From Vicinamibacterales bacterium (lineage in GTDB: Bacteria; Acidobacteriota; Vicinamibacteria; Vicinamibacterales; Vicinamibacteraceae), in NCBI GenBank assembly GCA_963816265.1, contig CAWFJQ010000003.1, forward strand, positions 1,681,620 through 1,745,619: a stretch of DNA of 64,000 nt. Reading direction: 5' to 3'. Positions 5,319-56,761 of the stretch are shown in pieces (the first letter of the stretch is position 1; each line of letters begins with the position of its first letter). The notes under the pieces are model-generated. The model was not told the DNA's origin and did no database searches. It saw only the letters and a program-made list of their open reading frames with translations. Both the position numbers and the translations under genes were made by a program.

Positions 5319-5484
5319 CTAGCAGCCCGTGGTGAAAGTGCCGCTGCATTCGACGGGCGATGCATCCCGGCGTTCGGCGTTGCTCGTCGTTCGAATATGG
5401 CCGATATTCTCGCTCCTCGCGCCTGGATCGCCGGGCGCCTCGCCCGTCTCGGTGCGACGCGGCACTTCCACCACGGGCTGCTAG
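5319..5484. repeat. 166-bp nested-palindrome repeat element, copy E3 (core in reverse orientation relative to E1 and E2).
   Basis: The terminal arms are CTAGCAGCCCGTGGTGAAAGTGCCGC (5319-5344) and GCGGCACTTCCACCACGGGCTGCTAG (5459-5484). They are complementary with 1 mismatch. The core aligns with the elements at 38032 and 56597. It sits between the convergent dctA and NMO genes. Confidence 0.8.
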
Positions 5485-5499
5485 CCGCCTTGGCTGGTC

Positions 5500-6918
5500 T
5501 CAGGCGCTCAGCAGCGTGGCGATCACGTCGGCGGCCGAGTAGCGGGTGGTGTCACCGGCCATGAACCGCGTCAGGCTCGTCACATCGTCCCCGGCGGTGA
5601 TGATCCCCGGCTCGCGATCGGCGCCGCGCACCTGGCCCAGTCCGATGTTGGCGACCAGCGCGTTGCAGATGCACTTGCGCCCGACGGTGTCCTCGACCAG
5701 GCCGCCCTTGCCGAGGTAGACGCTGACCGGCTCGGCGGCGCACCGGAATCCGATTGCCCCGTCGTCGCGGCGGTAGGCCTCGCGGAGATAGCCGAGATCG
5801 CAGACGCGCGTCCGCGCCTGGTAGATGGCCGGATCCGACAGCGTGCCGGCCAGCCCGGCGACCTTGAACGGAAACGACGTCGGCGACGCGAGCGGGTCGG
5901 TGTGGACGCGCGCCTCGCCGGCGCGGACCTGGGCCAGGAGGGCGTCCTTGTAGTCGGCGCGCAACCCGGACTCGTCGCAGAGCGCGAACGCCGTGCCCAC
6001 CTGGACGCCGGCGGCGCCCGCGGCCCGGGCGGCCTCGAGCATCGTGGCGCTGCCGTAGCCGCCGGCCAGCCAGAAGGGCCGCCCGAGCGCTCGCATCGCC
6101 TCGAGATCGACCACGTCGCGTTCGCCGTAGATCGGCTCGCCCGCGTCATTGAGCTGGCGCTTGCCGCGAGGCGGGGCGTTGTGGCCGCCGGCCGTCGGCC
6201 CTTCGACCACGAAGCCGTCGATGATGCCGTTGGCCCGCTTGAGCAGCGCCGCCGCCAGCACGTGCGAGGAGACGATGGCGATGAACGCCGGCCGCCCGAG
6301 CGGCGGGATGTCGATGTCGACGAAGTCGCGTGGGTTGAAGGTGAGCGACGCGGCGGCCCGGTCCTTGTCTCCGACGACCGCGACCGGGTAGCTGGCCGGC
6401 GCGTGCTGGGCGAGTTGCTCGAGCACGCCCGGGATCCGCGCGGGAATGCCGGCGCCCATCAGGACGTAGTCAACCCCGGCCAGCATGGCGCCGTAGATGG
6501 ACGGGAGATGCGGCAGCTGGATCTTCTCCAGATAGTTGATGCCGACCGGCTGGGCGTGCCCCTCGCGCGCGAGCAGCACCTCGACGAAATTGGCGGCGAG
6601 GCAGAGCTCGACGAGCTCCCGCGGCGGCTGCATCTGGTGGAGCGGAGGCGTCTTGAACGGCCGGCCCGGGTCCTTGCCGCCGGGGGCGTGGTCCTGCTGC
6701 CAGATGCGGTCCGCGATGTCCGGAACCGGGAAGCGGTCGAGGCCCCGCCGCACGTGCCCGCCGGGGTCCCCCATCTGCAGGCGTCGCGTCAGGATGACGT
6801 CGAGCGCCGTGCCGGAGACGACACCGAGCTGCCCCTGCGAGGAGACGGCGCGCGCCAGGCGCCAGTCGGACACGCCGGCGCCCATGCCGCCCTGGATGAT
6901 CGTCGGAACGTGATGCAT
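5500..6918 (-). CDS. Nitronate monooxygenase / 2-nitropropane dioxygenase-like FMN enzyme (NMO family).
   Basis: Intact 472-aa ORF. Reads MHHVPTIIQGGMGAGVS..FVVEGPTAGGHN..WLAGGYGS..GAAGVQVGTAF, which are typical NMO TIM-barrel motifs. Confidence 0.8.
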   Translation of the reverse strand: MHHVPTIIQGGMGAGVSDWRLARAVSSQGQLGVVSGTALDVILTRRLQMGDPGGHVRRGLDRFPVPDIADRIWQQDHAPGGKDPGRPFKTPPLHQMQPPRELVELCLAANFVEVLLAREGHAQPVGINYLEKIQLPHLPSIYGAMLAGVDYVLMGAGIPARIPGVLEQLAQHAPASYPVAVVGDKDRAAASLTFNPRDFVDIDIPPLGRPAFIAIVSSHVLAAALLKRANGIIDGFVVEGPTAGGHNAPPRGKRQLNDAGEPIYGERDVVDLEAMRALGRPFWLAGGYGSATMLEAARAAGAAGVQVGTAFALCDESGLRADYKDALLAQVRAGEARVHTDPLASPTSFPFKVAGLAGTLSDPAIYQARTRVCDLGYLREAYRRDDGAIGFRCAAEPVSVYLGKGGLVEDTVGRKCICNALVANIGLGQVRGADREPGIITAGDDVTSLTRFMAGDTTRYSAADVIATLLSA

Positions 6919-6933
6919 GATCGCGACGAACCC

Positions 6934-6949
6934 AGCAAGAGTGCGGCCA
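6934..6949 (-). promoter_or_regulatory. Sigma-54 (-24/-12) promoter candidate upstream of the NMO-like gene.
   Basis: The reverse complement reads TGGCCGCACTCTTGCT against the consensus TGGCACG-N4-TTGCW, with correct GG/GC spacing. It is intergenic. The -12 GC is only 17 nt from ATG 6918, which leaves a very short leader. Confidence 0.35.
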
Positions 6950-7063
6950 ATGGGCGCGGGGCGGGAATCCCGAACACCTCGACGGCGGTCCGCAGGCCTG
7001 CCGCCGAACGCGGGGACTATCTCCGCATGACGCGGGAAATTCCCCTTCGCCGAGCCCCGCTCC

Positions 7064-9190
7064 TCAGTGCTCGGCCCGGCGCAGGGTCGACCGGATCCGG
7101 GCCAGGAACCGGTCGCCTTCGAGCGGCTTGCGGACGTAGTCGTTGGCTCCGGCGTCGAGCGACTGCACCTCCGTCTCGTCGCCCGCCGCCCCGGTGACGA
7201 CGACGACCGGCAGCAGACTGGTCGCGACGCGACCGCGCAGGCGGCGCAACACCTCGAGGCCGTCGATCCCCGGCATCGCCAGGTCGAGGACGATCAGCGA
7301 GACTGGCGGGCCGGACTCGACGCGGGCCAGCGCCTCGAGGCCGTCGGCAGCTTCCGAGACACGCATCCCCTGGCTGCGGAGCAGCGCCGCCGCCAACGCG
7401 CGCGACACGGGGTCGTCGTCCACCACCAGGATGTGCGCGGCGCTCTCCGGCTCGGCCGCCGGCGCATCCGCCTCGCCGAGCTCGCGGTCGATCTCCTCGA
7501 GGGTCGTCTCACCGGCCCGGACACGGGCCGCCGCCGCTTCGTGCAGCGACCGCATCCCGCCGGCGATTGCGGCGGCCTGCAGCGGCGACGCCGGCGCGCC
7601 GCCGATGATGGCGAGTTCCAGCGCCGGGCTCGCGACCATCACCTCGAGCAGCGGGATCCGGCCGTGGTAGCCGGTGTGGCTGCACGCCGCGCAGCCGATC
7701 GCCCGCACCACCGGCTCGACCCCGTAGCGCAAGGCGAGCCGCTGTTCGACCGGCGTCGCCGCGCCGCTGATCCGTTGGGCGCAGCGGGGGCAGATGCGGC
7801 GCACGAGCCGCTGCGCCGTCGCGCCGCGCAGCGTGCTGGCGATCTCGCCGCGCTCGACGCCGAGATCGGCGAGGCGGCCGACCGCGCCGACGGCGTCGTT
7901 GGTGTGCAGCGAGGCGAGCACGAGATGGCCGGTCAGGCTGGCCTGCACCGCGATGGCGGCGGTCTCGGCGTCGCGGATCTCGCCGATGAAGATGACGTCG
8001 GGATCCTGCCGCAGGATGGATCGCAACGCGGTGACGAAGGTGACGTCGCGCTTCGGCTCGACCTGGATCTGGGTCAGGCCGGGCAGCTCGTACTCGACCG
8101 GATCCTCGACCGTCATCACGTTCAGCTCGCCGGCCGGCATCTCGCGCAACGCCGCGTACAACAGCGTCGTCTTGCCGGATCCGGTCGGTCCGGTGACCAG
8201 CACGATGCCGTCGCGGTGGCCGAGCAGCGTCCGCAGCGGCGCCACCTCGCAGCTTTCGAGCGACAGGTCCTCGAGGCGCCGCGCGTTGCCCGGATCGAGC
8301 AGCCGGATGACCGCCTTCTCGGACTCGCGCGTCGGCACGGTCGACAGCCGCAGATCGATCGAGCGCTCGTCGATCCGGATGCGGGCCCGGCCGTCCTGCG
8401 GCCGCAGCCGGTCGGCGATGTCCATCTTGCCGATGATCTTGATGCGCGAGACGACCCGGTTCAGGATCGGCAGCGACAGCCGGGTGTAGGGCTGGAGCAC
8501 GCCGTCGACGCGAAACCGTACCCGGCCGCCGTCGCGGTCGGGTTCGATGTGGACGTCGCTGGCGCGCGCGTGGACCGCGTCGCGCAGGATCAGGCTGGTC
8601 AGGCGCATGATCGGCGCCGACTCGGCCTCGCGCGCGGCGACCGGCGCCGGGCCCGACTCCGTCTCGATGTGGACCGCCGACGCCAGACCCGCGCCGACGC
8701 TGCCGAGCAGCCGCTCGATGGCGCGGTCGGGCGCATAGTGAGCGTCGATCAGCTCCTGGATCGCGTCCGGCGGCGCCACCTCCAGCACCGGCCGCCGCCC
8801 AGTCACGAAGCCGACCAGGTGCTCGCCTTCGATGTCGAGCGGATCGGCCGCGGCGACGACGATCTCGTGGTCGCTCTCACGCAGGCCGATGAGGTGCCGC
8901 GCCCGCGCCAGCTTCTCGGGGATGAGGGCCACGGCCCGGGCCTGGATGGTGGCCAGGTCGGCGAGCCCAACATGGCGGCTGGCGGCGACCGCGGCGGCCG
9001 GCAGGGCCGGCGACACGCCGGCGGCCCGGGCGATCGTCCGCCACTGGTCGACGATGGTCGCGGCGGCCTCGAGCAGCGGCGCGTCACCGGTGAGAAGCCC
9101 GCTCTCGCGGGCGACCTCGAGCAGCCAGGGGGTGAGGTGGGCGTCGCGGGTCGGGTGGGCGGCGAGATCGTCGAGCGGGGATGTCGGCAT
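7064..9190 (-). CDS. GspE/PilB-family secretion ATPase fused to a C-terminal response-regulator receiver domain.
   Basis: Intact 708-aa ORF with these parts: a T2SSE N-domain; Walker A GPTGSGKTT; Asp box DPDVIFIGEIRD; LASLHTN; a tetracysteine CPRC..CAAC; then a REC domain (ILVVDDD..LIVLDLAMPGIDG..DYVRKP). Confidence 0.85.
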   Translation of the reverse strand: MPTSPLDDLAAHPTRDAHLTPWLLEVARESGLLTGDAPLLEAAATIVDQWRTIARAAGVSPALPAAAVAASRHVGLADLATIQARAVALIPEKLARARHLIGLRESDHEIVVAAADPLDIEGEHLVGFVTGRRPVLEVAPPDAIQELIDAHYAPDRAIERLLGSVGAGLASAVHIETESGPAPVAAREAESAPIMRLTSLILRDAVHARASDVHIEPDRDGGRVRFRVDGVLQPYTRLSLPILNRVVSRIKIIGKMDIADRLRPQDGRARIRIDERSIDLRLSTVPTRESEKAVIRLLDPGNARRLEDLSLESCEVAPLRTLLGHRDGIVLVTGPTGSGKTTLLYAALREMPAGELNVMTVEDPVEYELPGLTQIQVEPKRDVTFVTALRSILRQDPDVIFIGEIRDAETAAIAVQASLTGHLVLASLHTNDAVGAVGRLADLGVERGEIASTLRGATAQRLVRRICPRCAQRISGAATPVEQRLALRYGVEPVVRAIGCAACSHTGYHGRIPLLEVMVASPALELAIIGGAPASPLQAAAIAGGMRSLHEAAAARVRAGETTLEEIDRELGEADAPAAEPESAAHILVVDDDPVSRALAAALLRSQGMRVSEAADGLEALARVESGPPVSLIVLDLAMPGIDGLEVLRRLRGRVATSLLPVVVVTGAAGDETEVQSLDAGANDYVRKPLEGDRFLARIRSTLRRAEH

Positions 9191-9214
9191 GGGGAGCTCT
9201 CCGCCCGATCAGAG

Positions 9215-9230
9215 GGCAAGCTCCGTACCC
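9215..9230 (-). promoter_or_regulatory. Sigma-54 promoter candidate upstream of the GspE-REC gene.
   Basis: The reverse complement reads GGGTACGGAGCTTGCC, with correct GG/GC spacing. The -12 GC lies 26 nt from ATG 9190, with the SD GGAGAG in between. Confidence 0.4.
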
Positions 9231-9297
9231 ACGGGCGGCGCGTCCAGGCCGGCAGCCGTCGACCTGCGGCTGCATGAAACGGCTCGCGATTGGGTGG

Positions 9298-9669
9298 TCA
9301 GTCCGGCGGGAAGTTTTCGCTCCGCTGCGGGATTGTCCGCTCGGCGTCCCGCAGCATGATCAGGAGCATCCGCGACGCCTCCGGGGCGAGCACCGCGTGC
9401 GGCACGTTGGCGGGCATCAGCACGATCGTCTGCGGCGCTGTCCGCACCTCGACGCCGCCAATGGTCAGCGTCAGCGCGCCGGACAACGTCAGCGCCAGCG
9501 CGTCGAACGGCGCCGTGTGCTCCGAGAGCTCCTCGCCGGCATCGAACGCGAACAGCGTGATGTTGCCGGCCGCGGTGCGCGCCAGCACCCGGCTCGCGAT
9601 CCCCTGGGCGGTCGGCGTGACCAGTGACTCCAGCGTGAACAATTCTCCGGCCGGCAGCGTGCTTGCCAT
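9298..9669 (-). CDS. Cupin-domain protein.
   Basis: Start ATG 9669 is preceded by GGGGGAG. Reads MASTLPAGELFTLESL..ITLFAFDAGEELSEHTAPFDALALTLSGAL..VLMPANVPHAV. The upstream part of the 9298..9963 track ORF looks non-coding. Confidence 0.75.
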   Translation of the reverse strand: MASTLPAGELFTLESLVTPTAQGIASRVLARTAAGNITLFAFDAGEELSEHTAPFDALALTLSGALTLTIGGVEVRTAPQTIVLMPANVPHAVLAPEASRMLLIMLRDAERTIPQRSENFPPD

Positions 9670-9933
9670 GGTTACTCCCCCACCGCAGCACCGGCAGGCG
9701 TCCGATGATCGTCGAAGCTGTCCATGGTGAGGGCCCAGTCTGACGCCAGACGATGCGGTGTCAAGCGAAGAGTGATTCGCGCACCCGCTCAGGACAAGCG
9801 ACGCTGCGCCAGACGTGACGGATTCTCCGCCGTTCCGCAGGAATCCCCGGCCCTGAGGAATCTTCCGCGCGACGCGCCGACCGAGCCGTGGGCCGCGCTG
9901 GCTCGGCACGCCCGGGAGCGTCACCCCCGCGCA

Positions 9934-9949
9934 AGGCACGTCGCTTGCA
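9934..9949 (+). promoter_or_regulatory. Sigma-54 promoter candidate upstream of the lipoprotein-ubiB pair.
   Basis: Reads AGGCACGTCGCTTGCA. Its 15-mer GGCACGTCGCTTGCA is identical to the promoter upstream of the HPF-like gene at 47076-47091. It is intergenic and in the right orientation. Confidence 0.65.
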
Positions 9950-9961
9950 GCCGACCTCGCC

Positions 9962-10985
9962 ATGCTACGCCGCCAGGCTGGATGCGTCGGCCGTCGAATG
10001 CGGCGGGACCTTCACCACGGGCTCCTGGGCCTCGCGGCGATCGCGATGGCCGGCTGCCAGCCCAGCCCTGAACGGGCCGCGACGGGCGGTCGCGCCCACC
10101 AGCCCGTCATCCGCCACAGTGACGTCCGGCCGTGCCGGCGCCGAGGCCACGCCGGCAGCCACCGCTCGCCCGGTCCCACTGCCGCCGGCCGGAGGCTCGG
10201 CGTTCGGCGACCGCATCGCGTTCCCACCGCGCAACGAGCCGTTCCAGTTCCGGCAGGCGCTCGAGGAGAAATACCGGTTCGGCCTGGGACGCGGGCCGAC
10301 GGCGACCTTCGTCGACGTCGAGGGGGACATCGTCTGGACGCAGGAGTACCTGCGCTATCGCGTCAACGGCTGCGACCACGACACCGCCGCGGCACGCGTC
10401 TTCAGCCAGATCCGCAGCGGCGCCATCGCCCCGACGTGCGGCGAGGCCCCGGAGGGGATGGTCGCCTTTCCACCGCGCAACGAACCGTTCGCGTTTCGCG
10501 TCGAGCTCGAAGCGTTCTACCGCGACGCGCTCCAGCGAGGCCTGACGTCGACCTTCGTCGACATCGAGGGCGACATCGTGTGGACCCAGGAATACCTGCG
10601 CTACCGGGTCAATGGCTGCGAGCACGTGCAGGCGACGGTCAACGTCCTGCGCCAGATCGACGGCGGCGGCATCGCGCCGATCTGCGCCGGCGTCCTGAAC
10701 GGCGTCTGGAACGGGGTGATGCTCGACTACCCGGGCGGGCGCACGTTCCGGATGGAGCTGTCGATGATCGGCGATCGCGTCACCGGCCGGATCACCGGCG
10801 ACGGCACCGGCGGCGGCGGCTTCATGACCGGGACGTATCCGGGCAGCGGACCGGTCCACCTCGAGGCCGACTTCGGCGACGGCAAGCAGTACTTCGACGG
10901 GGACTTCGACGGCGCGCAGAAGATCCGGGGCACGACGACCTACAACCTTCGGCCGCCCCGCTACCGCTTCGAGATGACGCGATGA
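9962..10985 (+). CDS. Putative lipoprotein with two tandem 82-aa modules and a C-terminal Gly-rich domain; one apparent frameshift near 10060-10110.
   Basis: The frame of ATG 9962/9998 gives the lipobox leader MRRDLHHGLLGLAAIAMAGC. The body is in the 9888 frame: FPPRNEPFQFRQALEEKYRF..VDVEGDIVWTQEYLRYRVNGCDH.., repeated as FPPRNEPFAFRVELEAFYRD..VDIEGDIVWTQEYLRYRVNGCEH... The stop overlaps the ubiB ATG. Confidence 0.65.
10221..10712 (+). repeat. Intragenic tandem duplication, 2 x about 246 bp, inside the lipoprotein gene.
   Basis: TTCCCACCGCGCAACGAGCCG.. at 10221 recurs as TTTCCACCGCGCAACGAACCG.. at 10467. The protein modules are clearly homologous. Confidence 0.75.
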
Positions 10986-12680
10986 ACGCGGCGGCACCGA
11001 CCAGACGGCGGATCGGGCGGGCGGTGCACGTCCGCCGCTACACCGAGATCGTCGGCATCCTCGTCCGCTACGGCTTCGTCGACGTCGTCGACGCGCTGCA
11101 TCTGGGGCCCTACCTCGCCGCCGGGCGGCGGATGCTCTCGGCCTTCGGCCGTCGCGACCAGCCGGAGGCGAGCCGGGCCGTCCGCCTCCGCCTCGCGTTC
11201 GAGGCGCTCGGGCCGACGTTCATCAAGTTCGGCCAGGCCCTGAGCACGCGGGCGGATCTGCTGCCGGCCGAGGTCGTCGCCGAACTGACGCTGCTCCAGG
11301 ACAACGTGCCGCCCCTGCCGGCAGGCGCGGCCGAGCGGGCGATCGAGGAGGCCACCGGGCGCCGCGTCGAGGATCTCTTCCTGGCGTTCGACCCGCAGCC
11401 GCTGGCGGCGGCGTCGATCGCCCAGGTGCACCGGGCGACGCTGCCGTCCGGCGAGCTCGTCGCGGTCAAGGTCCGGCGGCCCGGCCTGGCCGCCGTCGTC
11501 GAAGCCGATCTCGGCGATCCTGGCCGACCTGGCCGCGCTGGCGGAGCGCCATTGGCCCGACGCCGCGCTCTACAGCCTGGGCGAGCTGGTGGCCGAGTTC
11601 GCCCGGACCATCCGCCGCGAGCAGGACCTCGTGCGGGAGGGACGGCTGATCGAGCGGGTCGCGGCGCAGTTCGCCGGCGACGCCACCATCCGCCTGCCGC
11701 GGATCCACTGGCCGCTGAGCCGCGCGGCGGTGCTCACGATGGAGTTCCTGGACGGCGTGAAGGTGAGCGCCGTCGGCACCGACGAAGCCCCCGGCCTCGA
11801 TCGCCGCCTGGTGGCGCGGCGCGGCGCCGACGCGGTGCTGCGGCAGGTGCTGATCCACGGCTTGTTCCATGCCGACCCGCATCCCGGCAACCTGCTCGTC
11901 CTGCCGCAGAACGTCGTCGCCTTCGTCGACTTCGGCATCGTCGGCCGCCTCGATCGCCGGATGCGCGACCGGCTCGCCGAGATGGTCATGGCGATCCATG
12001 CCCACGACGCCGATCGGCTCGCCGGCATCGTCGTCGGCGTCGCCACGCCGCTGCGTCCGGTCGACGGGGCGGCGCTGTCGCGCGACCTCGACGAGATGCT
12101 GGACCAGTACGCGGGCCTGGCGCTGGGGCAGCTCTCGCTGCGGGCGCTGTTCGGGTCGATCACGGAGGCGATGGCCCGGCACCGCCTGAAGCTGCCGGCC
12201 GATCTCCTGCTGCTGATCAAGTCACTGACGACAATCGAGGCGGTCGGCCGTCAGCTCGACCCGGACTTCGAGATCGTGGAATACGCCACGCCGTTCGTGA
12301 CGGCGCTGCTCTCGGAGAAGCGGAGCCCGACGGCGGTGGCGCGCCGGACCGCCCGCGCCAGCCGCCGCGCCCTCCGCGCGATGGGAGCGGCGGCGACCGA
12401 CCTGGCCGAGATCACCCGACGCGTCCGGCGCGAGGGCGTCCAGGTGCAGTTCGTCCACCGCAACCTTGATCACTTCGTCCGCGAGATGGATCGGTCGAGC
12501 AATCGCCTCAGCTTCGCGATCGTCATCGCCGCGATCCTGATCGGCTCGTCGATCATCGTCCTGGCCGGCGCCGGTCCGCAGCTGCTCGGCTACCCGCTCC
12601 TCGGCCTGGCCGGGTTCCTGAGCGCCGCGATCCTCGGCCTCGGCCTCGCCGTGGGCGTCCTCCGCTCCGGGCGTCTGTGA
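10982..12680 (+). CDS. ubiB: UbiB/ABC1-family atypical kinase; one apparent frameshift near 11500-11590.
   Basis: Starts MNAAAPTRRRIGRAVHVRRYTEIVGILVRYGF..LGPTFIKFGQALSTRADLLP..AAASIAQVHRATLPSGELVAVKVRRPG. It continues in the 11589 frame with EFLDG..HADPHPGNLLV..FVDFGIVGRL and two C-terminal TM helices. Confidence 0.85.
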
Positions 12681-12707
12681 TCGCTCGACGCTGACCGTCT
12701 CCCTCCC

Positions 12708-17496: not shown

Positions 17497-17529
17497 GGCT
17501 GCTCCCTTGTTATTGCTCGGTACGGCTGC

Positions 17530-38031: not shown

Positions 38032-38197
38032 CTAGTCCCCTGGAACCGTGATAGCTGGGACAAGTCCCGGAGCGCGGCGCCCCGCGGGCAAGGCGCGACG
38101 AGGAAGGATATTGGGCATATTCGACCGAGGAGCAACGCCGCCCCCGGGGATGCCCCGCCCGGGAATTGTTCTAGAAATCACGGTTCCAGGGGACTAG
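38032..38197. repeat. 166-bp nested-palindrome repeat element, copy E1.
   Basis: The arms are a perfect 21-bp inverted repeat: CTAGTCCCCTGGAACCGTGAT (38032-38052) and ATCACGGTTCCAGGGGACTAG (38177-38197). The core is conserved with the copies at 5319 and 56597. It lies between convergent genes, and the right arm contains the TAG stop of the 38194 gene. Confidence 0.85.
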
Positions 38198-38640
38198 GCA
38201 GCCGGGGTGTCCCGGTGGAGCTGGCCGGTGACGAGCGCGACCACAGCGGCCGAGTCGACCGGCTTGGCGACGACCGTCACCCCCTCCAGACGGCTGGCGG
38301 AGACATCGCCGCCCGAGTCGAGGACGAGGCACGGCGCCACTCCGGTCTGGGCCCGCAGGTCGCGAAGGCTGGCCGCGTCCCGGCCCTCGAGCATCTCACC
38401 GTCGACCATCACCAGATCGGGCGCGACAGCCCCGCGCAGGGCGGTCGAGGCCTCGGCCAACGACCCGCACGGCACGACGTCGACAGCGCAGCCGCGCAGC
38501 GACTCGGCGACGAACCAGCGATACAGCGCCTCCCGATCGACGAGCAGCACCGTCGCGGCAGCGGAAGGGACAGCAGGGGGATCCCGCGAGCGCGGATGGT
38601 CCGGCACGATCAGCCTCACGGCGTCCGACGCAACAGACAT
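38194..38640 (-). CDS. Stand-alone receiver-domain protein.
   Basis: ATG 38640 follows GAGGTGG. Reads ..TVLLVDREALYRWFVAESL..PDLVMVDGEM..VVAKPVD. Confidence 0.6.
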   Translation of the reverse strand: MSVASDAVRLIVPDHPRSRDPPAVPSAAATVLLVDREALYRWFVAESLRGCAVDVVPCGSLAEASTALRGAVAPDLVMVDGEMLEGRDAASLRDLRAQTGVAPCLVLDSGGDVSASRLEGVTVVAKPVDSAAVVALVTGQLHRDTPAA

Positions 38641-38768
38641 GCCACCTCGCTGGCGCAGCCTGGGACGCCAGCTGCCCGCTGGTCGCGTGATGCGCCACGA
38701 CCTGGCCGCGAGAAAGCTCGCCGAGGCGGGGATTTTTGCGACGCCCTCGGGCGGCTGCGTCGGGTGGC

Positions 38769-40163
38769 TCAGGCCCCCACGCCCAGCGTGGCCACGAACC
38801 GGCTGCCGGCTTCGCTCGCTTCGAGCTGGAGGCTGCCCCCATGCTGCTCGGCAATCCAGCGTGCGATGGGCAGGCCGAGTCCCCCTCCAGCGGTCGGCCG
38901 GGAGGTTTCCAGCCGCACGAACCGCTCGAAGACGTGGTCCCGCCTGGCCTCCGGAATGCCGGGCCCGGCGTCGTCGACGGTCAGCCGGATCTGCCCCAGC
39001 GTGACGGCCACCGCGACGGCGACCGCACTGCCCTCCGGCGAGTAGCGGATCGCGTTGTCGAGCAGGTTCATCACCATCCGCCGCAGCAGCTCGTCGTCGC
39101 CGCGCATCTGGACGCCCTCGGGCGCCTCGAGCGCGATGGTGATGCCGCGCTCGGCGGCGAGCACCGCCGCGGCCCGCACGCACTCGGCCACGACCTCGTC
39201 GAAGTAGAGATGGCGCGGCTCCAGCGTCCGCCCGCCGACGTCGGCCAGCGCCAGCACGAACATGTCGTCGACGACGCGCGTCAGCCGCTCGGTCTGACTG
39301 GCGACGATGTCGAGCGCCTCGCGATACTCGGCCTCGGTCCGGCTCGGGGCGGCGAGCGTGACCTGGGCGGCCGTCCGCGCCACCGACACGGGGGTGCGCA
39401 GCTCGTGCGAGGCGTCGGCCATGAAGCGGCGCTGGACGCCGACGGACGCCGACAGGCGGTCGAGCACGCCGTTGAAGGCCACCGTCAGCCGCCCCAGCTC
39501 GTCGCGCGGGCCGGGGACCGGCAATCGCGCGTCGACATGCCGCGGATCGATCGCATCGGCATGCGCCGCCGTCTGCGCGAGCGGGAGTAGCGCGCGCCAC
39601 ACGAGCAGCCAGCCGCCAGCCAGCGCGACCAGCGCGGCAATCGGGATGGCGATGCGGACGGTGTTCATGACCGTGGCATGGTCGCGGTCCAACGGCGCCA
39701 GCGCGGTCCACACGACGACCGCGTAGGCGTTCGTTCCTTGGCGCCACCGCGACGCCGCGACCCGCAGCCGCTCCGGCTCGAGCGTGCGGGGCACGTCCGT
39801 CGCCACGACCTGCTGTTGCCGCTCCGGGCTCAGCGCCGGCGCGCCGCCATACCGTGTCGCCAGCTGGCGGCCGCTTTCGTCCAGCACCGACACGCCGACG
39901 CCGGGCAGCTCCAGCTCGACCATCGCTTCGAGCGCACCGGCCGCCAGCGACCGCCGCTCGGTGACTTCGCTGTTCACGACGCCGGCAGCCGACCGCATCG
40001 CGTGCGTCAGATCGGTGTCGATGCGGGCGAGTCCGAGCCGTTCGTGGACGGTGCCGACCGCGAAGGCAAGGACGGTGAGGACCGCGACCATGACGAGGCC
40101 GTAGCTCACGGCCAGTCGGGTCCGGACCCCGAGCCATCGACGTCCCGGGACGGGCGGACTCAT
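38769..40163 (-). CDS. Membrane sensor histidine kinase (two TM helices, HAMP, HisKA, HATPase).
   Basis: ATG 40163 overlaps the RR stop (ATGA). It has the H-box ADASHELRTP, LLDNAIRYSP, DDAGPGIP and GGGLGLPIA. Confidence 0.85.
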   Translation of the reverse strand: MSPPVPGRRWLGVRTRLAVSYGLVMVAVLTVLAFAVGTVHERLGLARIDTDLTHAMRSAAGVVNSEVTERRSLAAGALEAMVELELPGVGVSVLDESGRQLATRYGGAPALSPERQQQVVATDVPRTLEPERLRVAASRWRQGTNAYAVVVWTALAPLDRDHATVMNTVRIAIPIAALVALAGGWLLVWRALLPLAQTAAHADAIDPRHVDARLPVPGPRDELGRLTVAFNGVLDRLSASVGVQRRFMADASHELRTPVSVARTAAQVTLAAPSRTEAEYREALDIVASQTERLTRVVDDMFVLALADVGGRTLEPRHLYFDEVVAECVRAAAVLAAERGITIALEAPEGVQMRGDDELLRRMVMNLLDNAIRYSPEGSAVAVAVAVTLGQIRLTVDDAGPGIPEARRDHVFERFVRLETSRPTAGGGLGLPIARWIAEQHGGSLQLEASEAGSRFVATLGVGA

Positions 40164-43256: not shown

Positions 43257-43258
43257 CG

Positions 43259-44938: not shown

Positions 44939-45039
44939 TCATCCGCCATTCATCTTGCAGTCATACGCTCGGGGTGAGGGCGGCGGAGCGGCGGTGCCTG
45001 CCGGAAGCAGCCGCGCCACGACTCACCTGGAGGATCTCG

Positions 45040-45627: not shown

Positions 45628-45628
45628 G

Positions 45629-46586: not shown

Positions 46587-46622
46587 CCGTCCGGCTCTGC
46601 TGATTCGCCCTCGCGGCCGCCG

Positions 46623-46997: not shown

Positions 46998-47075
46998 GAT
47001 GGCCCTCCCTCGGATCGTGGCGTGTCGCGCGCTGACTCGGCCGCGAGGCCGGAGAGCGCCCGCAGCCGCATGACG

Positions 47076-47091
47076 TGCAAGCGACGTGCCC
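47076..47091 (-). promoter_or_regulatory. Sigma-54 promoter candidate upstream of the HPF-like gene.
   Basis: The reverse complement reads GGGCACGTCGCTTGCA, matching 11 of the 12 defined positions. It is intergenic and about 80 nt from ATG 46997. Confidence 0.65.
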
Positions 47092-47166
47092 GTCCTGGTC
47101 CCCTGGAACCGCCACGAAGTCGGGGGCGGATGCGGAACATTCCGCGCCTGCTGGGGATTCTTCGGG

Positions 47167-51188: not shown

Positions 51189-51195
51189 CGTGGCC

Positions 51196-52386
51196 TCAGT
51201 GATCGTCGTGGCCGGCTTCGGATTTTTCGGCCTGCGACTTCAGGAGGAAGGCTCCGTCGACCACGATGGTCTGGTCGGCGGTGAGCCCTGATAGCACTTC
51301 CACCTCGGTTCCGAGGTCCCGGCCGCGCCCGATAGGCCGAATCTCGAACACACCGCTAGCCTTGGGCACGAAGACGCACCAGTGCTCACCGACCCGCTGA
51401 ACCGCCGAGACCGGAACGGCCAGAATCGGCGTACTGCTGATGCCGATGGGAACGGCCGCGGTCGCCGACATGCCAGGGCGCAGCACGGCATCGCGATTGC
51501 GAACCAAGATCCGGACGTCGATCGTCCGAGACTCGCTCGACACTTGCCGGCCCACCAGGACGACCTGGCCCGGGAAGTCCTGAGCGGGCAGCGCGGAGAA
51601 GGTGACGCGCGACGGTGTTCCTGCTTGGATGCGCAGAGCGTCACGCTCGAAGGCGTGGACTGTCAGCCAGAGCGTCGACAGGTTTGCGATCCGAAAGGCC
51701 GCGGTCCCCGGCTCGAGCATCTGGCCCTGCATGGCACGGCGCTCAATCACGGTGCCAGTCACTGGCGACCGAAGCGTGAAGAACGAGGCCCGCGCCATAT
51801 CGGTCGCTCGCTCGTCTGGCACGCCCACCCCCATCGCATACAGAACCGAAGCCGCCCCCCGTGCCGCGGCTCGCGCGGACGCGGCCTCGGCTTCGGCTTC
51901 CTGCACTTCGCGCTGAGGGGCAATGCGCTCCGCCGCGAGTTCCCGCTTTCGCGCCAAGGCGCTCTCTGCGAGGGACTGGCGCGCCGTCGCCGTCACGTAG
52001 TCGGCTCGGGCTTGACCAACGGTCGTCGACTGCAGTTCCATCAACGCCTGCTCGGCGCGCACCGCCTCGCCGAGGCCGACTATCAAACGCACGACCCGCG
52101 ACGCGACCGGCACGCCAACCTCGGCATAGGCGCGTTCGTCGACGGCCAGCTCACCAAGAAGGGTCAGCTGCTCGTCGCCGCGGCGCGACTCGACCTTCGC
52201 GGTCGTGATTCGCAGGTCTCGCAGCATGCCTGCTTCGATACGCACCTCCGAGGCATTGCCATGGGCGTCGCCGGCTTCCGGCTGCGCTTCCTGCGCGTCG
52301 GCCTTTGGGGCGGGCGATTCGGCGGGCCGACGACAGCCGGCGAGTCCGAGACACGCCGCAAGGACGAGAGCGACTAGGCGAGTCAT
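51196..52386 (-). CDS. czcB: Efflux RND periplasmic adaptor (membrane fusion protein) with a lipoprotein leader.
   Basis: Starts MTRLVALVLAACLGLAGC. It has coiled-coil and beta-barrel MFP modules. It overlaps the czcC stop by 4 nt. Confidence 0.85.
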   Translation of the reverse strand: MTRLVALVLAACLGLAGCRRPAESPAPKADAQEAQPEAGDAHGNASEVRIEAGMLRDLRITTAKVESRRGDEQLTLLGELAVDERAYAEVGVPVASRVVRLIVGLGEAVRAEQALMELQSTTVGQARADYVTATARQSLAESALARKRELAAERIAPQREVQEAEAEAASARAAARGAASVLYAMGVGVPDERATDMARASFFTLRSPVTGTVIERRAMQGQMLEPGTAAFRIANLSTLWLTVHAFERDALRIQAGTPSRVTFSALPAQDFPGQVVLVGRQVSSESRTIDVRILVRNRDAVLRPGMSATAAVPIGISSTPILAVPVSAVQRVGEHWCVFVPKASGVFEIRPIGRGRDLGTEVEVLSGLTADQTIVVDGAFLLKSQAEKSEAGHDDH

Positions 52387-53591
52387 CGCAGCACCGCGGC
52401 CGTCGCGTCGATCTCGACACGCGCCAGTGCGGCCTCCAGCAGGGTGTGCAAATACTGGGCGCGCGTCTCGAGCAGCTCGCGCCGAATGAGGAGCAGGTCT
52501 GGTAAGCCAATCTGTCCAACCTCGAAGCTACGCGCGGTTAGCGCATCGTTCTCGTCGAGGCTCGGAAGCGCATCGGCCTCGAGCGTACGGGCCGCGGTCA
52601 CTCGCTTCTCGTAGACCTCGAGGGCGGTGTCGAGTTCAGTGCGAATGCGCGACCTGGCGGCTTCGAGCTCCATCCGCAGCCGGCTTGCGCGCGCCGTGCC
52701 GACGGCGAGTAGCTCCTGTCCCTTGGAGAAGACGGGCACGGTGATCGTGACGGCGCCGAGAATGATCCGACTGCCCTCCTCGCGGGCGAATCGAACGCCA
52801 ACGCCGTACTCGGGCCGCGACAGCGAACGGGCCATCGCGACGTCGGACTCGGCGTCGCGAACCGCCGCGTCGAGCGTCCGCAACTCCGGACAATCCGCCG
52901 CCAAGCGCGTCAGTTCGATAGCGTCGGGTGGCTGCCCTGGCGCCAAGCTGCCCTGAACAGCGATCGGACCTGGCAGCTGCAGCAACGTTCGGAGTGCGCC
53001 CAGGGCGGCCGCCTGCTCGGCCTCGCCGGTTCGTCGCTCGGCTCGCGCCCGCGCGCGCGATGCGCGCGCCAGGTTGACGTCGAGCGCGGGAATGTCGCCA
53101 GCGCGGTAGCGACGGTCGGCCGCGTCGAATACCGCGCTCGCCAACGTCTCGGCGGTCATGAACAGACGAATGCGTTCCGCTGCGAAGACCGCTTGGTAGA
53201 ACGTGCGGGCAGCGTCGCGCAGCACGCCACGGGTGGTCTCGTCCGCGCTCGCCGCCGCTTCCGCCAGACGCGCGTTGGCACCGGCGATGCGGGCCGACCG
53301 CACACCTGGCGGCTCGAATCGCTGCGACAGCCCCAGCTCGAGGTCGGTCGAACGCGAGCCGTTGCGACGATCGCCGCCGGCGGCGGCGATCTCGGGATTC
53401 GTCAGGCGCACCGATGCTCCAACGACCCGGCCGCGCGCCTCTGCCAGACCCAGACGGCCGCTGACAATCTGCGGCGCGCGTTCGCGCGCCCTCGTCAGGA
53501 CGTCGGCCAAGGTGAGAACCGTCTGAGCGCCAGCGGCGGGACACAGCAACACGACGCCCGCCAAAGCGAGCGCGGCACGCGCAACACGCAT
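52383..53591 (-). CDS. czcC: TolC-like outer-membrane efflux protein.
   Basis: ATG 53591 follows GGGGGAAG. Signal MRVARAALALAGVVLLCPAAGAQ. Two OEP repeats. Confidence 0.8.
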   Translation of the reverse strand: MRVARAALALAGVVLLCPAAGAQTVLTLADVLTRARERAPQIVSGRLGLAEARGRVVGASVRLTNPEIAAAGGDRRNGSRSTDLELGLSQRFEPPGVRSARIAGANARLAEAAASADETTRGVLRDAARTFYQAVFAAERIRLFMTAETLASAVFDAADRRYRAGDIPALDVNLARASRARARAERRTGEAEQAAALGALRTLLQLPGPIAVQGSLAPGQPPDAIELTRLAADCPELRTLDAAVRDAESDVAMARSLSRPEYGVGVRFAREEGSRIILGAVTITVPVFSKGQELLAVGTARASRLRMELEAARSRIRTELDTALEVYEKRVTAARTLEADALPSLDENDALTARSFEVGQIGLPDLLLIRRELLETRAQYLHTLLEAALARVEIDATAAVLR

Positions 53592-53650
53592 GACTTCCCC
53601 CGAATTTGTGATGGAGCGAGACTGCGAGAACGCAGTCCTACGGCACGGAC

Positions 53651-53947
53651 CTACGCCAGTGCCGGTCGGGGGACGTGCAGCACGTCGTTCGGAGATGCGA
53701 GGACAGCGACGGTGAGGGGGTCGGCCCACTCGATGGTCGCCAGCGGCGTCTCGGGCAGCAGCACCGTGGCCACCACGTCATAGGGGCGCGCGCAGTGGCA
53801 GCGAAGACAGGTCGGAGGACACCGGCCGTCCCCTTGAGAAGAAGCGGCGTCAGTGCCGATGCACTCCTCCGGGAAGACGAGCTCGAACACGCCACTCGTC
53901 GTGGTGGAAAGCAGGCCGACGAGGAGCAGCATCAACAGACGACTCAT
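53651..53947 (-). CDS. Small exported Cys-rich protein heading the czc operon.
   Basis: Reads MSRLLMLLLVGLLSTTTSG.. then ..EECIGTDAASSQGDGRCPPTCLRCHCARP... It lies 60 nt upstream of czcC on the same strand. Confidence 0.5.
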   Translation of the reverse strand: MSRLLMLLLVGLLSTTTSGVFELVFPEECIGTDAASSQGDGRCPPTCLRCHCARPYDVVATVLLPETPLATIEWADPLTVAVLASPNDVLHVPRPALA

Positions 53948-53988
53948 GGCCGTCAGTCGTTATACACCCACGAGGCGAGCCGGCGGAA

Positions 53989-55044
53989 CTATCCTTTGCC
54001 TTTGCCATCGACCGAGAGGCGCTCGAGCACCACGTCGAGGTTGCTGCGCATGACGACGTAGGGAACCACGCGCTGGTTGGACGCCGGCCGCTGACGGCTC
54101 TGGAGAAACTGGCAGAGGGACTGGAGCGCGATGCGGCCCTGCGTCAGCGGACGCTGGTAGACCGTCGCCGCGACCTTGCCCTGGCGCATCAAGTCGACGA
54201 GCTCTGGGAAGAGGTCGGTGGCGACGATGGTCAGTCCGGCCAGGCGCCCTTCCCGTTCGGCAGCGCGGAGCACCGGCAGAGAGTTGCTGGTGCTGATGTA
54301 GAGCCCCTGCAAGCGCGGATGCGCGCGCAGCACCTCCCGCGTGCGACGGCGCGCCTCCCGTTCGTCGTCGTGGGCTTCGACGACGGGACCGAGGGTCAGG
54401 CTCGGATTGGTCGCCGCCAGGCCCGAGGTGAACCCGCGCAGCTTGTCGCCGTGATCCTGGGTCGTCAGCCAGCCGGTGAAGAAGCCGACCTGGCCCCCAG
54501 CCGGAAGGAAACGGCCGAGCAGCTCGCCGGCGATCGCACCCACCGTGAATGAATTCGCGGAGACCGACAGCAGGCGCGGGCTGTCGGGAGCGTCGGTGAC
54601 GACGCAGACCACCGGGATGTCGCGCCGGGCCGCCTCCTCGAGATGCGGCGCCAGGGCGTCGGGGTTTCCCGGCGCGATGATGAGCCCGTCGACGCCGTCG
54701 GCGAGCGCCTGCTCGATCAGCGGGATGTCGCCCTCGCCGAGTCGGGGATACGAGCGGAACTCGACCTGGATCGCCGGCGCGAACTGCGCCGCGGCTTCGC
54801 GAATGCCCTCGCGCAGCGCCTCCCAGAACAGGGCGCCCCGGTCGGGCAGATGCACTTCGATCCGCCGCTGCCGGCGGGAGCTCAGGTAGCTGGCGGCGAG
54901 GTTCGGCGAATAGCCGAGCGTCGTCGCGGCGGCAAGGACGCGTTCCCGCGTCACCGGGCTGATGCCCCGCTTGCCGTGGAGCGCGCGGTCCACCGTCCCG
55001 ATGGAAACGCCGCTCCGCTGCGCGATGTCCTTCATGCCGACCAT
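53989..55044 (-). CDS. LacI-family transcriptional regulator.
   Basis: Reads MVGMKDIAQRSGVSIGTVDRALHGKRGISPVTRERVLAAATTLGYSPN, followed by a periplasmic-binding-fold sugar domain. Confidence 0.85.
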   Translation of the reverse strand: MVGMKDIAQRSGVSIGTVDRALHGKRGISPVTRERVLAAATTLGYSPNLAASYLSSRRQRRIEVHLPDRGALFWEALREGIREAAAQFAPAIQVEFRSYPRLGEGDIPLIEQALADGVDGLIIAPGNPDALAPHLEEAARRDIPVVCVVTDAPDSPRLLSVSANSFTVGAIAGELLGRFLPAGGQVGFFTGWLTTQDHGDKLRGFTSGLAATNPSLTLGPVVEAHDDEREARRRTREVLRAHPRLQGLYISTSNSLPVLRAAEREGRLAGLTIVATDLFPELVDLMRQGKVAATVYQRPLTQGRIALQSLCQFLQSRQRPASNQRVVPYVVMRSNLDVVLERLSVDGKGKG

Positions 55045-55093
55045 GGCCGAAGCCAACGGTCGGAGCCGACGCACAGCCGTTATCACCGGCCGG

Positions 55094-55441
55094 TCAGGCG
55101 GGCCACGGCTCGGCCTCCTCGACGGCGACGTGGGCGGCGGGAGCGGCGTCGCTCGACACGTCGGCCACGAGCCAGGCGATCTCGACGATGCACTCGCCGC
55201 GCGCCTCGTCCCACGTGACGCGCGTCGGCGTGAAGACGCGCCGCTCGCCCTGGACCACGACCGCGATGTCGACGTGCGGACTCGCCAGAGCAAGAGGCAT
55301 CGAGATCCGCTTGAGGAACGAGGAGACGAGCTTCGGCTCTCCGCTCGCCTCGTCGGGAACCATGAGGCACAGCCTCAACACGACGGAGGACTCGGCAGAA
55401 CCAGCGTCGCGGGAGGCTCCAGGCGCGGACACAGGATGCAT
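55094..55441 (-). CDS. Hypothetical small protein; the start is uncertain (ATG 55363 is more likely).
   Basis: Third-position GC is high from MVPDEASGEPKLVSSFLKRISMPLALASPHVDIAVVVQGERRVF.. onward. I recognise no motif. Confidence 0.4.
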   Translation of the reverse strand: MHPVSAPGASRDAGSAESSVVLRLCLMVPDEASGEPKLVSSFLKRISMPLALASPHVDIAVVVQGERRVFTPTRVTWDEARGECIVEIAWLVADVSSDAAPAAHVAVEEAEPWPA

Positions 55442-55465
55442 GGGCGAGAGCGCGGACGATACGAA

Positions 55466-55483
55466 CTGTATGCGCTTTCATAC
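55466..55483. promoter_or_regulatory. LacI-type operator candidate in the divergent region upstream of the 55614 LacI gene.
   Basis: Reads TGTATGCGCTTTCATACA, with 6-bp inverted arms. It shares the 12-mer GTATGCGCTTTC with the site at 56907. It sits in a locally AT-rich intergenic stretch. Confidence 0.45.
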
Positions 55484-55613
55484 ATGGCCGTCAAAACTAT
55501 CCGCATGCCGCGTCATATATCCTTAAATTGTTGACCAAAACTAGTTGCGGCACGCTTACACCAGCTACCCCAGTCCGGGACTTGCTGCTCGCGGTGCGTG
55601 AGAAGATGCCGCG

Positions 55614-56600
55614 ATGACGCTCCAGGAAGTGGCCCGGCGCGCGCGCGTGTCCACGGCCACCGTATCGCGGGTGCTGAACAAGGGCACGTCGGTCAAGAGC
55701 TCGACGCGGGCCCGCGTGCTCAAGGTGATCCAGGAGCTGAAGTACAGCCCCAACCTGCACGCCCAGAGCCTGGCCGGCGGCCGGAGCCGGAGCATCGGCG
55801 TGATCGTCTCGAACATCGAGAACCCGTTCTTCCTGGACATCTACAAGACGGTCGAGGCGGGCGCCCATGCGGAGGGCTATGAGGTGATCATGGCCAACAC
55901 CGACTACAGCTCGGAGCGCCTGGTCACCAGCATCCGGCTGATGCTCGGGCGGCGGCTCGCCGGCGTGGCGGCCATCGTCTCCGAGATGGACGCCGCCTTG
56001 ATCCAGGAGCTGAGCGGCCAGCGGATCCCGGTGGTGTTCTACGACGTCGGGACGCCGCGGCGGAACATCACCAACATCCGCGTCGACTATCGGGGGGGCA
56101 TGGCCAAGCTCACCTCCTACCTGTGCAGCCTGGGCCATCGACGCGTGGGCTACGTCGGCCACCACGCCTCACTGGGTCCCATCCAGGAGCGCGTGCAGTC
56201 GTTGCGCGACGCCACCAGCAAGTACCCCGGCCTGGAAGTCGAGACGGCCACCGATGCGGACACGCTCGAGGGCGGTCGGCAGGCCGCGCGCGTCCTGCTC
56301 GGCCGGTCGCCACGCCCAACCGCCCTGATCTGCGTCAACGACGTCATGGCCGTCGGCGCGCTGCGCGAAGTCCGCGCCCGCGGCTTGCGCGTGCCCGAGG
56401 ACGTGTCCGTCACCGGCTTCGACAACGTGACGCTGGCGCAATTCGCCGTGCCGGCGCTGACCACCGTGCACATTCCCCGCGAGCAGATCGGACGCACCAT
56501 CTGCGCCTGCCTGATGCGGGACGACGTCCCGCGCGAGCAGGAGTTCGTCGTCGAGCCGGAGCTCGTGGTTCGCGACTCGACCGGTCCGGCGCCCCGCTAG
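55614..56600 (+). CDS. LacI-family transcriptional regulator.
   Basis: Reads MTLQEVARRARVSTATVSRVLNKGTSVKSSTRARVLKVIQELKYSPN, followed by a sugar-binding domain. Confidence 0.9.
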   Translation: MTLQEVARRARVSTATVSRVLNKGTSVKSSTRARVLKVIQELKYSPNLHAQSLAGGRSRSIGVIVSNIENPFFLDIYKTVEAGAHAEGYEVIMANTDYSSERLVTSIRLMLGRRLAGVAAIVSEMDAALIQELSGQRIPVVFYDVGTPRRNITNIRVDYRGGMAKLTSYLCSLGHRRVGYVGHHASLGPIQERVQSLRDATSKYPGLEVETATDADTLEGGRQAARVLLGRSPRPTALICVNDVMAVGALREVRARGLRVPEDVSVTGFDNVTLAQFAVPALTTVHIPREQIGRTICACLMRDDVPREQEFVVEPELVVRDSTGPAPR

Positions 56601-56761
56601 TGTCCCGAGTCAGAGATTCGGTGCACAAATCGCGGGCGCGGCGCCCGGATCGCAAGGCGCGAGGAGTGAGCATATTGGCGATATGTGAGCGACGAGCAAC
56701 GCGGCGAGGCGGGATGCCCCGCCCGCGAGTTGTGTGGCGAATCTCTGACTCAGGACACTAG
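56597..56761. repeat. 165-bp nested-palindrome repeat element, copy E2.
   Basis: The arms are CTAGTGTCCCGAGTCAGAGATTCG (56597-56620) and CGAATCTCTGACTCAGGACACTAG (56738-56761), with 1 mismatch. Inner stems are CACAA/TTGTG and TCGCGGGCG/CGCCCGCGA. The core is conserved. The left arm contains the LacI TAG stop. Confidence 0.85.

Follow-up and report, generated by a model that had tools for sequence, protein, structure and literature searches.

What are the three CTAG-ended hairpin repeats found in a 64,000-nucleotide stretch of a Vicinamibacterales genome (GenBank assembly GCA_963816265.1, contig CAWFJQ010000003.1, forward-strand positions 1,681,620 to 1,745,619; below, the window), and how did they come to be there? 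Vicinamibacterales are abundant soil bacteria, mostly uncultured, and for them the searches made turned up neither a described repeat family nor a structured RNA that matches. The initial annotation of this DNA had reported three copies of 165–166 nt with CTAG ends, and all three were found where it had placed them. We number the copies E1 to E3 and give coordinates within the window:

38032–38197, plus strand: E1, full copy of 166 nt with arms of lineage B (CTAGTCCCCTGGAACCGTGAT...), matched by the covariance model at 156.7 bits over model positions 1–165
38072–38158, plus strand: conserved core of E1, with the invariant helix GCGYGGCGCCC / GGGAUGCNNCGC (fixed G·U, bulged A), the GA zipper and the apical stem-loop
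56597–56761, plus strand: E2, full copy of 165 nt with arms of lineage C (CTAGTGTCCCGAGTCAGAG...)
56636–56722, plus strand: conserved core of E2, placed by alignment and common to many copies in DNA and RNA metagenome contigs
5319–5484, minus strand (the family sense strand): E3, full copy of 166 nt with arms of lineage A (CTAGCAGCCCGTGGTG...)
5356–5444, minus strand: conserved core of E3, placed by alignment and column conservation

We conclude that these copies probably represent a new family of hairpin-shaped, non-autonomous mobile elements that target CTAG and carry a conserved structured core, found mainly in Vicinamibacterales and of the MITE or REPIN kind (MITE, miniature inverted-repeat transposable element; REPIN, hairpin of paired repetitive extragenic palindromes, REPs). 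Compared with MITEs and with REPs/REPINs, the element is distinct from every named family. In its anatomy, a unit of ~166 bp has three layers: lineage-specific terminal inverted repeats (TIRs) of ~16–25 bp capped by CTAG, a fast-evolving middle stem that keeps only its pairing and length, and a core of ~90 nt that is near-invariant across all lineages.

The window copies and their relatives

CTAG forms the first and last four nucleotides of E1, E2 and E3, and their near-perfect terminal inverted arms are 21–26 bp long. The core patterns GGCGCGASGAGNNAGNATATYGGNNATAT and GAGCAACGC-N8-GGGATGCNNCGCCCG match the 64 kb only at these copies, with 0 mismatches, against 0.00–0.02 matches expected in the shuffled window. 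Folded as RNA, each copy forms a single rod-like hairpin from end to end with a minimum free energy of −110 to −116 kcal/mol, as compared with about −62 to −65 kcal/mol for its shuffles (z = −11.3 to −12.5; for E1, −115.9 kcal/mol and z −11.3). As single-stranded DNA (ssDNA), E1 also folds well beyond its shuffles (z −7.6). A covariance model from relatives recovers E1–E3 as the sole full copies in the window, at 153–161 bits; a weak match at 321–382 was judged not to be an element.

How far does the family extend? The pattern GAGCAACGC-N6-10-GGGATGCNNCGCC, run once over species-representative genomes, matched at least 115 stretches (L-numbers below are locus labels). Among the matches listed, nearly all are metagenome-assembled genomes (MAGs) labelled Vicinamibacterales, Vicinamibacteria or Acidobacteriota, with a few Bryobacterales or Thermoanaerobaculia and single contigs labelled Gemmatimonadota, Planctomycetota and Gammaproteobacteria (L070); two matches, in Rhodobacter and Anaerolinea, look like chance. 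Complete Vicinamibacterales chromosomes with copies include OZ252008.1, OZ244900.1, OY762226.1 and OZ219745.1. An alignment of 66 full copies (A3) was the basis of covariance model R1, and the search with it, which the initial annotation had suggested as a way to more copies, yielded 126 distinct matches in the 115 loci; unrelated control loci totalling 276 kb gave 0 matches, as did viral contigs and plasmids. Eleven of the R1 matches lack the search pattern, corresponding to ~1 extra copy per 75 kb, and the window holds three per 64 kb; by rough extrapolation a genome would contain tens to a few hundred copies. Length is nearly fixed, at 166 nt in 44 of 98 copies, 165 in 17 and 167 in 8 (69/98 at 165–167), and the G+C content of the element is 64–67%.

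Rfam 15 gave 0 matches at gathering score over the whole window, and no description of this repeat family was found in the literature searched, which suggests that, within that literature, it is the first repeat family for Vicinamibacterales. In the metagenomes that hold the window, the core is covered 10–30 times as deeply as the flanks, and contig breaks fall within the element.

Structure of the hairpin and its sense strand

Covariation was counted on A3 with the RNAalifold structure, with shuffles and slid partners as controls. Standard pairs fill 94.5% of cells (74.5% shuffled, 35–40% slid), 643 cells have changed on both sides (192 shuffled, 81–161 slid) and 38 of 52 pairs show double changes (30.8 shuffled, 24–30 slid); no shuffle attained the observed value for any of the three measures. 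The proposal that the stems covary under selection on structure, originally made from three copies, is borne out by these counts, and the selection is strand-specific (see below).

The layers of the hairpin evolve differently. In the outer ~16 bp of each arm identity is 80% within an arm lineage and 50% between lineages, in the middle stem 73% and 35%, and in the core 82% and 78%. The value of 35% is near random, and the middle stem keeps its pairing nonetheless. The non-palindromic centre, which had been noted as conserved, is indeed the most conserved part of the element (78% between lineages, as against 35–50% for the stems), and in the aligned sequences the core is more conserved than the termini, which is the inverse of the usual MITE pattern. 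The outer stems had in turn been described as copy-specific, which does not hold on the wider sample: the same arm types recur in other genomes and are ~80% kept within a lineage across species. About five such lineages recur across species at non-orthologous sites, namely lineage A (CTAG[C/G]AGCCCGTGGTG..., 25 of 66 copies), lineage B (CTAGTCCCCTGGAACCGTGAT, with 21 nt the same in E1 and L080), lineage C (CTAGTGTCCCGAGTCAGAG...) and at least two more, and all have a CTAG-NNN-CCYG tip in common. The outer ~16 bp are lineage-specific TIRs, and the contrast with classical MITEs that had been drawn from the arms falls away.

The core contains the invariant helix GCG-NN-GCGCCCG / CGGGAUGC-NN-CGC, in which one G·U pair is fixed and one A bulges out, and a variable helix of 3–5 bp. 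Invariant AGGCGCGA on the 5' strand faces invariant GAGCAACGC on the 3' strand, and part of CAAC bulges out, AA in some folds and AAC in others. Three tandem G·A/A·G mismatches are conserved in 59–66 of the 66 copies, and the Watson–Crick pairs between them covary freely, one of them occurring as C:G, G:C, A:U and U:A. The AAC bulge and G·A pairs were inspected as a possible K-turn, which was rejected as the bulge is on the wrong side and two Watson–Crick pairs away. The apical stem-loop is usually AUAU-rich and in some copies GC-rich (e.g. GCGGCC...GGCCGT or CGGAC...GTCCG). The ATAT-N5-ATAT sequence, initially put forward as a fixed protein site, is the stem of this apical hairpin and covaries to GC-rich stems. 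With more than 100 natural variants, the family offers ample material on a compact motif with many non-canonical pairs.

On the strand defined by the core, G·U/U·G occurs in 278 paired cells and A·C/C·A in 48, and the excess persists (135 vs 46) when the three columns in which G·U predominates are left out. Of the 98 copies, 92 have a better fold as sense RNA than as antisense (means −101.9 vs −93.0 kcal/mol). The G·U excess and the better sense fold together indicate that one particular strand is read in single-stranded form. DNA likewise tolerates G·T and tandem G·A pairs, so this does not tell RNA from ssDNA. Family members with various arms are found in Logan contigs of soil and sediment metatranscriptomes at word depth 12–60, the contigs carrying no strand or end information, and the element is therefore transcribed at least by read-through.

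Could the ~165-nt rod then be a mature RNA, made by multi-copy independent small RNA genes or by a new self-cleaving ribozyme, with its spread being secondary? The conserved asymmetric core with its invariant unpaired bases and fixed non-canonical pairs would suit such a product, as would the strong covariation at constant length, the metatranscriptome presence and the existence of core-only copies without arms (see below). However, no sigma-70-like promoter was detected in or beside E1, the hairpin uses its very first and last bases, which double as stop codons of the neighbours, and orientation is random relative to host transcription. No Rfam family or known ribozyme class was matched by E1 at E up to 10, the only matches being generic long-hairpin microRNA models far below threshold, and the metatranscriptome contigs, as said, define neither strand nor ends. 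We consider this explanation highly improbable.

Insertion at CTAG and gene ends

To which sites do the copies go? Flanks were classed by codon-usage frame scoring, checked against the Pfam-supported neighbours in the window. CTAG is present at both ends in 42 of 98 copies and most of the others are one base off at one end. The TAG of a co-directional upstream gene lies exactly inside the 5' CTAG in 23 copies, and the stop of a convergent downstream gene inside the 3' CTAG in about 23. Where the genes on both sides run the same way, 16 copies are sense and 13 antisense, some copies are located upstream of genes or inside coding sequence, and orientation relative to local GC skew is unbiased (44 vs 50).

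In the window, the 5' CTAG of E2 holds the TAG stop (56598–56600) of a LacI-family gene (55614–56600), and a minus-strand open reading frame (ORF) at 38194–40137 ends in E1. E3 sits between a convergent SDF symporter gene (3835–5304, plus) and an NMO-family gene (5500–6918, minus), which stop 15 and 16 nt outside the element. The earlier suggestion that arms contain stop codons is therefore correct for E2, probably correct for E1, where the ORF is backed by codon-usage score only and has no Pfam match, and does not apply to E3. The window is Acidobacteriota-like: the symporter gene beside E3 has a counterpart with 82% DNA identity in an Acidobacteriota MAG.

CTAG is scarce in this DNA: in the window, whose G+C content is 71%, it occurs 13 times, against ~170 expected from base composition (~13-fold rarer), and GATC occurs 513 times and TCGA 710 times. 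Six of the 13 are element termini and eight belong to elements or to a remnant described below; of the other five at least three coincide with the TAG ends of listed ORFs (40914, 44935, 52374). In the element-anchored loci roughly 200 of 451 CTAG sites belong to the element. As CTAG is strongly avoided in these genomes of 71% G+C and survives mostly as C followed by a TAG stop, copies gather at gene ends in both orientations.

This bears on the possibility that the hairpin is a cis-acting 3'-untranslated-region (3'-UTR) RNA element of the host, one that stabilises mRNA, is processed by RNase III/E or terminates transcription. E1–E3 are all co-directional with the upstream gene, the hairpins are very stable, transcripts are present in metatranscriptomes at the depth given above and the G·U pairs favour one strand; moreover, documented effects of that sort exist for ERIC and REP (PMC2229807). 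Over the 98 copies, however, the element is sense to the gene that supplies the stop codon as often as antisense (23 and about 23; 16 vs 13 between co-directional genes). The 3' flanks of E1–E3 (GGCAGCCGG, TCGCCTGG and GGGCCGCC) have no T/U run after any copy and a scan at E1 gave 0 terminator-like sites, so that an intrinsic (Rho-independent) terminator was rejected. Orthologous genes occur without the element, genes flanking different copies are unrelated, and some copies are upstream of genes or within them. The placement at gene 3' ends that was noticed at the outset is thus real and follows from the CTAG/TAG target, while the orientation-dependent 3'-UTR role is not seen. We give the host-element explanation a slim chance; such a role is unlikely for the family as a whole, and single copies may have been co-opted, by analogy with what has been reported for ERIC (PMC2229807).

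Further indications of mobility come from comparing sites. A homologue of a flanking ORF is common to only 17 of 4753 element pairs, mostly as distant paralogues, and synteny among copies of the same lineage is essentially absent; L110 and E3, promising at first as one orthologous site, were found to be at different sites. The LacI-family gene upstream of E2 has six orthologues in metagenome loci (L116, with 93% protein identity, and L117, L118, L152, L166 and L171, four of them at 87% and one at 85%) and none of them has an element downstream; in L118 the stop of this gene is ~35 nt from the TGTAAGCGATTGC motif, as compared with ~240 nt in the window. In metagenome contigs similarity to E1 begins and ends at 38032 and 38197/38198, with different flanks. 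In L007 (5767–6201) the element forms a tandem array of 2.7 copies with 95% identity and a period of 162, that is, the unit minus 4, so that neighbours share one CTAG. Non-palindromic direct repeats that look like target duplications flank two copies (TTTA/TTTA in L101, CTGG/CTGG in L112). Excision or empty-allele joints were not seen in metagenome contigs, which break in the element. The CTAG target, empty orthologous sites, non-orthologous positions and shared-CTAG tandems are hallmarks of a mobile element, and the initial alternative of structural selection instead of a MITE is not supported: the elements are inserted at CTAG, by a putative transposase acting in trans.

Two side observations concern the arrangement of copies. 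In L083 (5525–5850) an armless core variant is repeated in tandem with a period of 177 and runs off the contig end. In L051 near-identical inverted copies (3508–3675, plus; 5180–5347, minus) bracket one Glu/Leu/Phe/Val-dehydrogenase-like gene (3657–5183), an arrangement that resembles a composite transposon round a housekeeping gene; as the bracketed gene is not a transposase, this pair was rejected as an autonomous partner.

The element is also itself a target. In L032 (761–2391, element sense on the minus strand) an IS110-family insertion sequence (IS) of ~1.46 kb sits inside the core, exactly between ...TTTGAGGGAG and GAGCAACGC..., and encodes a protein of 480 aa with DEDD_Tnp_IS110 and Transposase_20 domains. 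The repeat thus serves as an IS110 landing site, like REPs in Pseudomonas and E. coli. L039 has an element truncated in a similar way, with a 3' arm identical to that in L032. Core-only hairpins of ~97–105 nt without CTAG arms are found in L098 (955–1048), L074 (2960–3056) and L034 (3531–3627), in three genomes in frame at the same position of a gene for a DnaE2-like error-prone polymerase, where the core encodes ...RRPRSK.R.GSGQAVR.RGATPLRGM....

Candidate mobilising enzymes and related hairpins

Which enzyme could move such an element? IS630 inserts at CTAG and duplicates TA, and IS5 duplicates a 4-bp YTAR target that is often CTAG. An insert made in the manner of either would end in CTAG on both sides, and tandem inserts would have a single CTAG between them, as observed. 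In the mechanism we propose, a trans-acting transposase would put the element into CTAG, and a DDE enzyme that duplicates TA or CTAG, of the IS630 or IS5 type, would fit the ends best. Successful copies would have to keep the strand-specific hairpin, including the fixed G·U and the three tandem G·A/A·G mismatches, and at some stage of propagation or persistence one strand would be read in single-stranded form, as RNA or ssDNA. Its likeliest reader would be a protein with a binding site in the invariant core, a fixed distance away from the CTAG-capped base; such a fixed core-to-base spacing is suggested by the constant length. Since the copies lie in random orientation at unrelated sites, the G·U pairs and the G·A zipper are best understood as requirements inherited from propagating copies and not as adaptations at each locus.

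Several points weigh against this interpretation. Both IS630/Tc1-mariner and IS5 enzymes act on double-stranded ends and need no full-length hairpin; cut-and-paste of double-stranded DNA alone explains neither the pairing over the full length, nor the strand-specific G·U, nor a core that is more conserved than the termini. No IS630/IS5-type or RAYT-type peptide motif was found in 1.17 Mb of flanking DNA, a sample far too small to exclude one gene per genome. Searches for arm matches outside the elements and for CTAG-capped inverted repeats of up to 6 kb revealed no long element with the same arms round a transposase, and the autonomous-partner search at L008 gave nothing. At the termini of four copies the variants are compensatory (TTAG...CTAA in two, CTGG...CCAG in two) and fit a structural cap equally well, and as CTAG is palindromic, target duplication and stem cap are indistinguishable. 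The relatives of the LacI locus stop at TGA and not at TAG, and no precisely alignable empty site was recovered at which a duplication (TA, CTAG or none) could be read. Finally, the three cores embedded in dnaE2 appear to keep their pairing through stem changes at one orthologous site, which hints at selection in place rather than only at a source copy.

The mobiliser could alternatively be an HUH tyrosine transposase (RAYT or TIRYT) that moves a REPIN-like element as ssDNA, recognising the folded sense strand and cutting at a CTAG tag. In E. coli the RAYT cuts the GTAG tag of REPs. Folding is strand-specific here also, with G·T-compatible pairs and the ssDNA z-score of −7.6 noted above, a conserved tetranucleotide tag stands at the base of the palindrome, and other CTAG/CTAA-capped hairpins with different interiors (see below) suggest recognition of cap plus hairpin. 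An IS110-family IS occurs inside a copy, as in REPs (PMC1525189), and copies lie in frame in a replication/repair gene, as reported for REPs. Di Nocera et al. report that Acidobacteria encode a distinct clade of RAYT-like 'TIRYT' genes between long TIRs that also form repeat families (PMC3733652), on account of which an HUH enzyme stays a live alternative. Against it, the 1.17 Mb of loci contain no YxxxNP(V/L)(R/K)-type RAYT motif, a weak objection given that one copy per genome suffices. Transposition of lagging-strand ssDNA predicts a bias in orientation relative to GC skew, and this is missing; the TTTA/TTTA and CTGG/CTGG repeats resemble target duplications, and HUH enzymes produce none. 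The caps decay equally on the left and on the right (15 vs 14), while an IS200/IS605-style model, with the left tag in the target and the right one in the element, predicts asymmetry. In addition, the arms themselves are not short REP-like palindromes. On balance we regard an HUH mechanism as possible but unlikely.

A more speculative idea, which we hold to be doubtful and give only a small chance, is that the invariant core (triple tandem G·A zipper, AAC bulge and GGCGCCC/GGGAUGC helix) could be a new functional nucleic-acid module. It would bring a structure-specific enzyme to the folded sense strand (RNA or ssDNA) and have it cut and join at the CTAG-capped base, a fixed distance away. If true, the element would be hairpin-borne and mobile in a way that has not been recognised before, with pairing as the sole requirement on its arms, and the module could survive without arms, in frame in dnaE2-like genes and with its pairing maintained.

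How does the element compare with known repeats? Bacterial MITEs are <200 bp, have TIRs with TA at the termini, target duplications, long stem-loops and in-frame copies in genes, and those that are palindromic over the whole length include ERIC/IRU (127 bp), YPAL/RU-2 (168 bp), Correia/NEMIS and RUP (PMC2229807). The element likewise is small, non-coding and multi-copy, with TIRs, TA in the termini, in-frame copies, insertion between genes within transcription units, one long stem-loop and filled or empty sites between relatives. Of the features by which MITEs are recognised, small size, copy number, TIRs and presence or absence at orthologous sites are found, and a parent autonomous IS with the same ends was not found in the small sample of 1.17 Mb of loci; in this it differs from RUP, whose parent is IS630-Spn1. 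Unlike the A+T-rich MITEs, the element is G+C-rich, with a strict CTAG cap, several arm lineages on one core, a centre more conserved than the termini and a core of tandem G·A pairs, and it comes from a different phylum.

With REP, BIME and REPIN elements it has in common the palindromic form, the location mostly 3' of genes and the conserved tetranucleotide at the foot of the stem, the single long hairpin (formed by REP doublets), lineage diversity within and between genomes, use as a landing site by the IS110 family and copies in replication/repair genes (PMC3733652, PMC3116915, PMC1525189). The likeness to REP/BIME that had been pointed out from the window is therefore apt, as regards multiple copies, mostly at gene 3' ends, the IS110 target and in-frame copies in a repair polymerase gene. 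It differs from REPs in having self-complementary CTAG at both ends instead of GTAG or CGTC at one, and 166 bp with a non-palindromic conserved centre and arms that are not hairpins instead of a 20–40-bp palindrome, and from the REP/RAYT system in the negative RAYT motif scan of the loci and in the two direct-repeat cases that suggest target duplication. Integron attC sites were also considered and rejected: the element ends in CTAG and lacks the R''/L''...L'/R' boxes (RYYYAAC ... GTTRRRY), and its copies are scattered among housekeeping genes in both orientations, not in co-oriented arrays by intI.

The element matters beyond its classification, as it breaks short-read assemblies at each copy and supplies or overlaps stop codons, and about half of the CTAG sites in the examined sequence belong to it. 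As an IS110 landing pad it also shapes genome structure and annotation in Vicinamibacterales. A search for a new protein that binds RNA or ssDNA, or for a new route of transposition, would have a well-defined candidate in it.

Other hairpins capped by CTAG, CTAA or TTAG, with different interiors, are found at L013 1912–2047 (136 nt), L068 6868–7052 (185 nt), L072 5955–6038 (84 nt), L098 7594–7630 (37 nt) and L018 4366–4633 (268 nt). Some of them have GA-rich internal loops, and that of L018 has lineage-A arms round a longer, divergent core. They suggest a wider superfamily of capped hairpins. Because their interiors are unrelated and they occur in the same genomes, cap and stem may be the mobility signal, and the core a very successful passenger or cofactor site.

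Two degraded copies in the window had been missed by the initial annotation:

9964–10028, plus strand: 3'-terminal fragment of lineage A, from about GCAACGCC to a degenerate CTGG end, 51/63 identical to E3 positions 102–164 in a local alignment
56758–56790, strand not assigned: arm remnant, CTAGTCGCCTGGAAC|TTCAGGGGACAAGCAGCTAG, abutting E2 with a common 3' CTAG, 14/15 identical to the 5' arm of E1

The fragment begins near the GAGCAACGC point, the same point at which IS110 is inserted in L032, and overlaps the first codons of ORF 9962–12469, whose annotated start may be spurious, since later residues (LLGLAAIAMAGC) resemble a lipoprotein signal. The remnant looks like lineage-B arms that collapsed without a core, or like an older insertion into which E2 landed.

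Smaller palindromes are found within some copies. In L005 (3990–4173), L014 (3303–3504) and L084 (2598–2798), all on chromosome OZ252008.1, the 3' strand of the G·A zipper has gained one or two tandem 18-nt mini-hairpins, CGGACTGNCGCAGTCCG, with GACCG before the insert and AGGAG after it, bringing these elements to 184–202 nt. In L015 (5451–5700, minus) the 5' half of the core is split by ~115 nt containing two unrelated GC-rich mini-palindromes, CCACCCCACGGCG...CGCCGTGGGG and CCCCCACCGTGC...GCACGGTGGGG, and here a second small palindromic repeat family may be nesting in the element.

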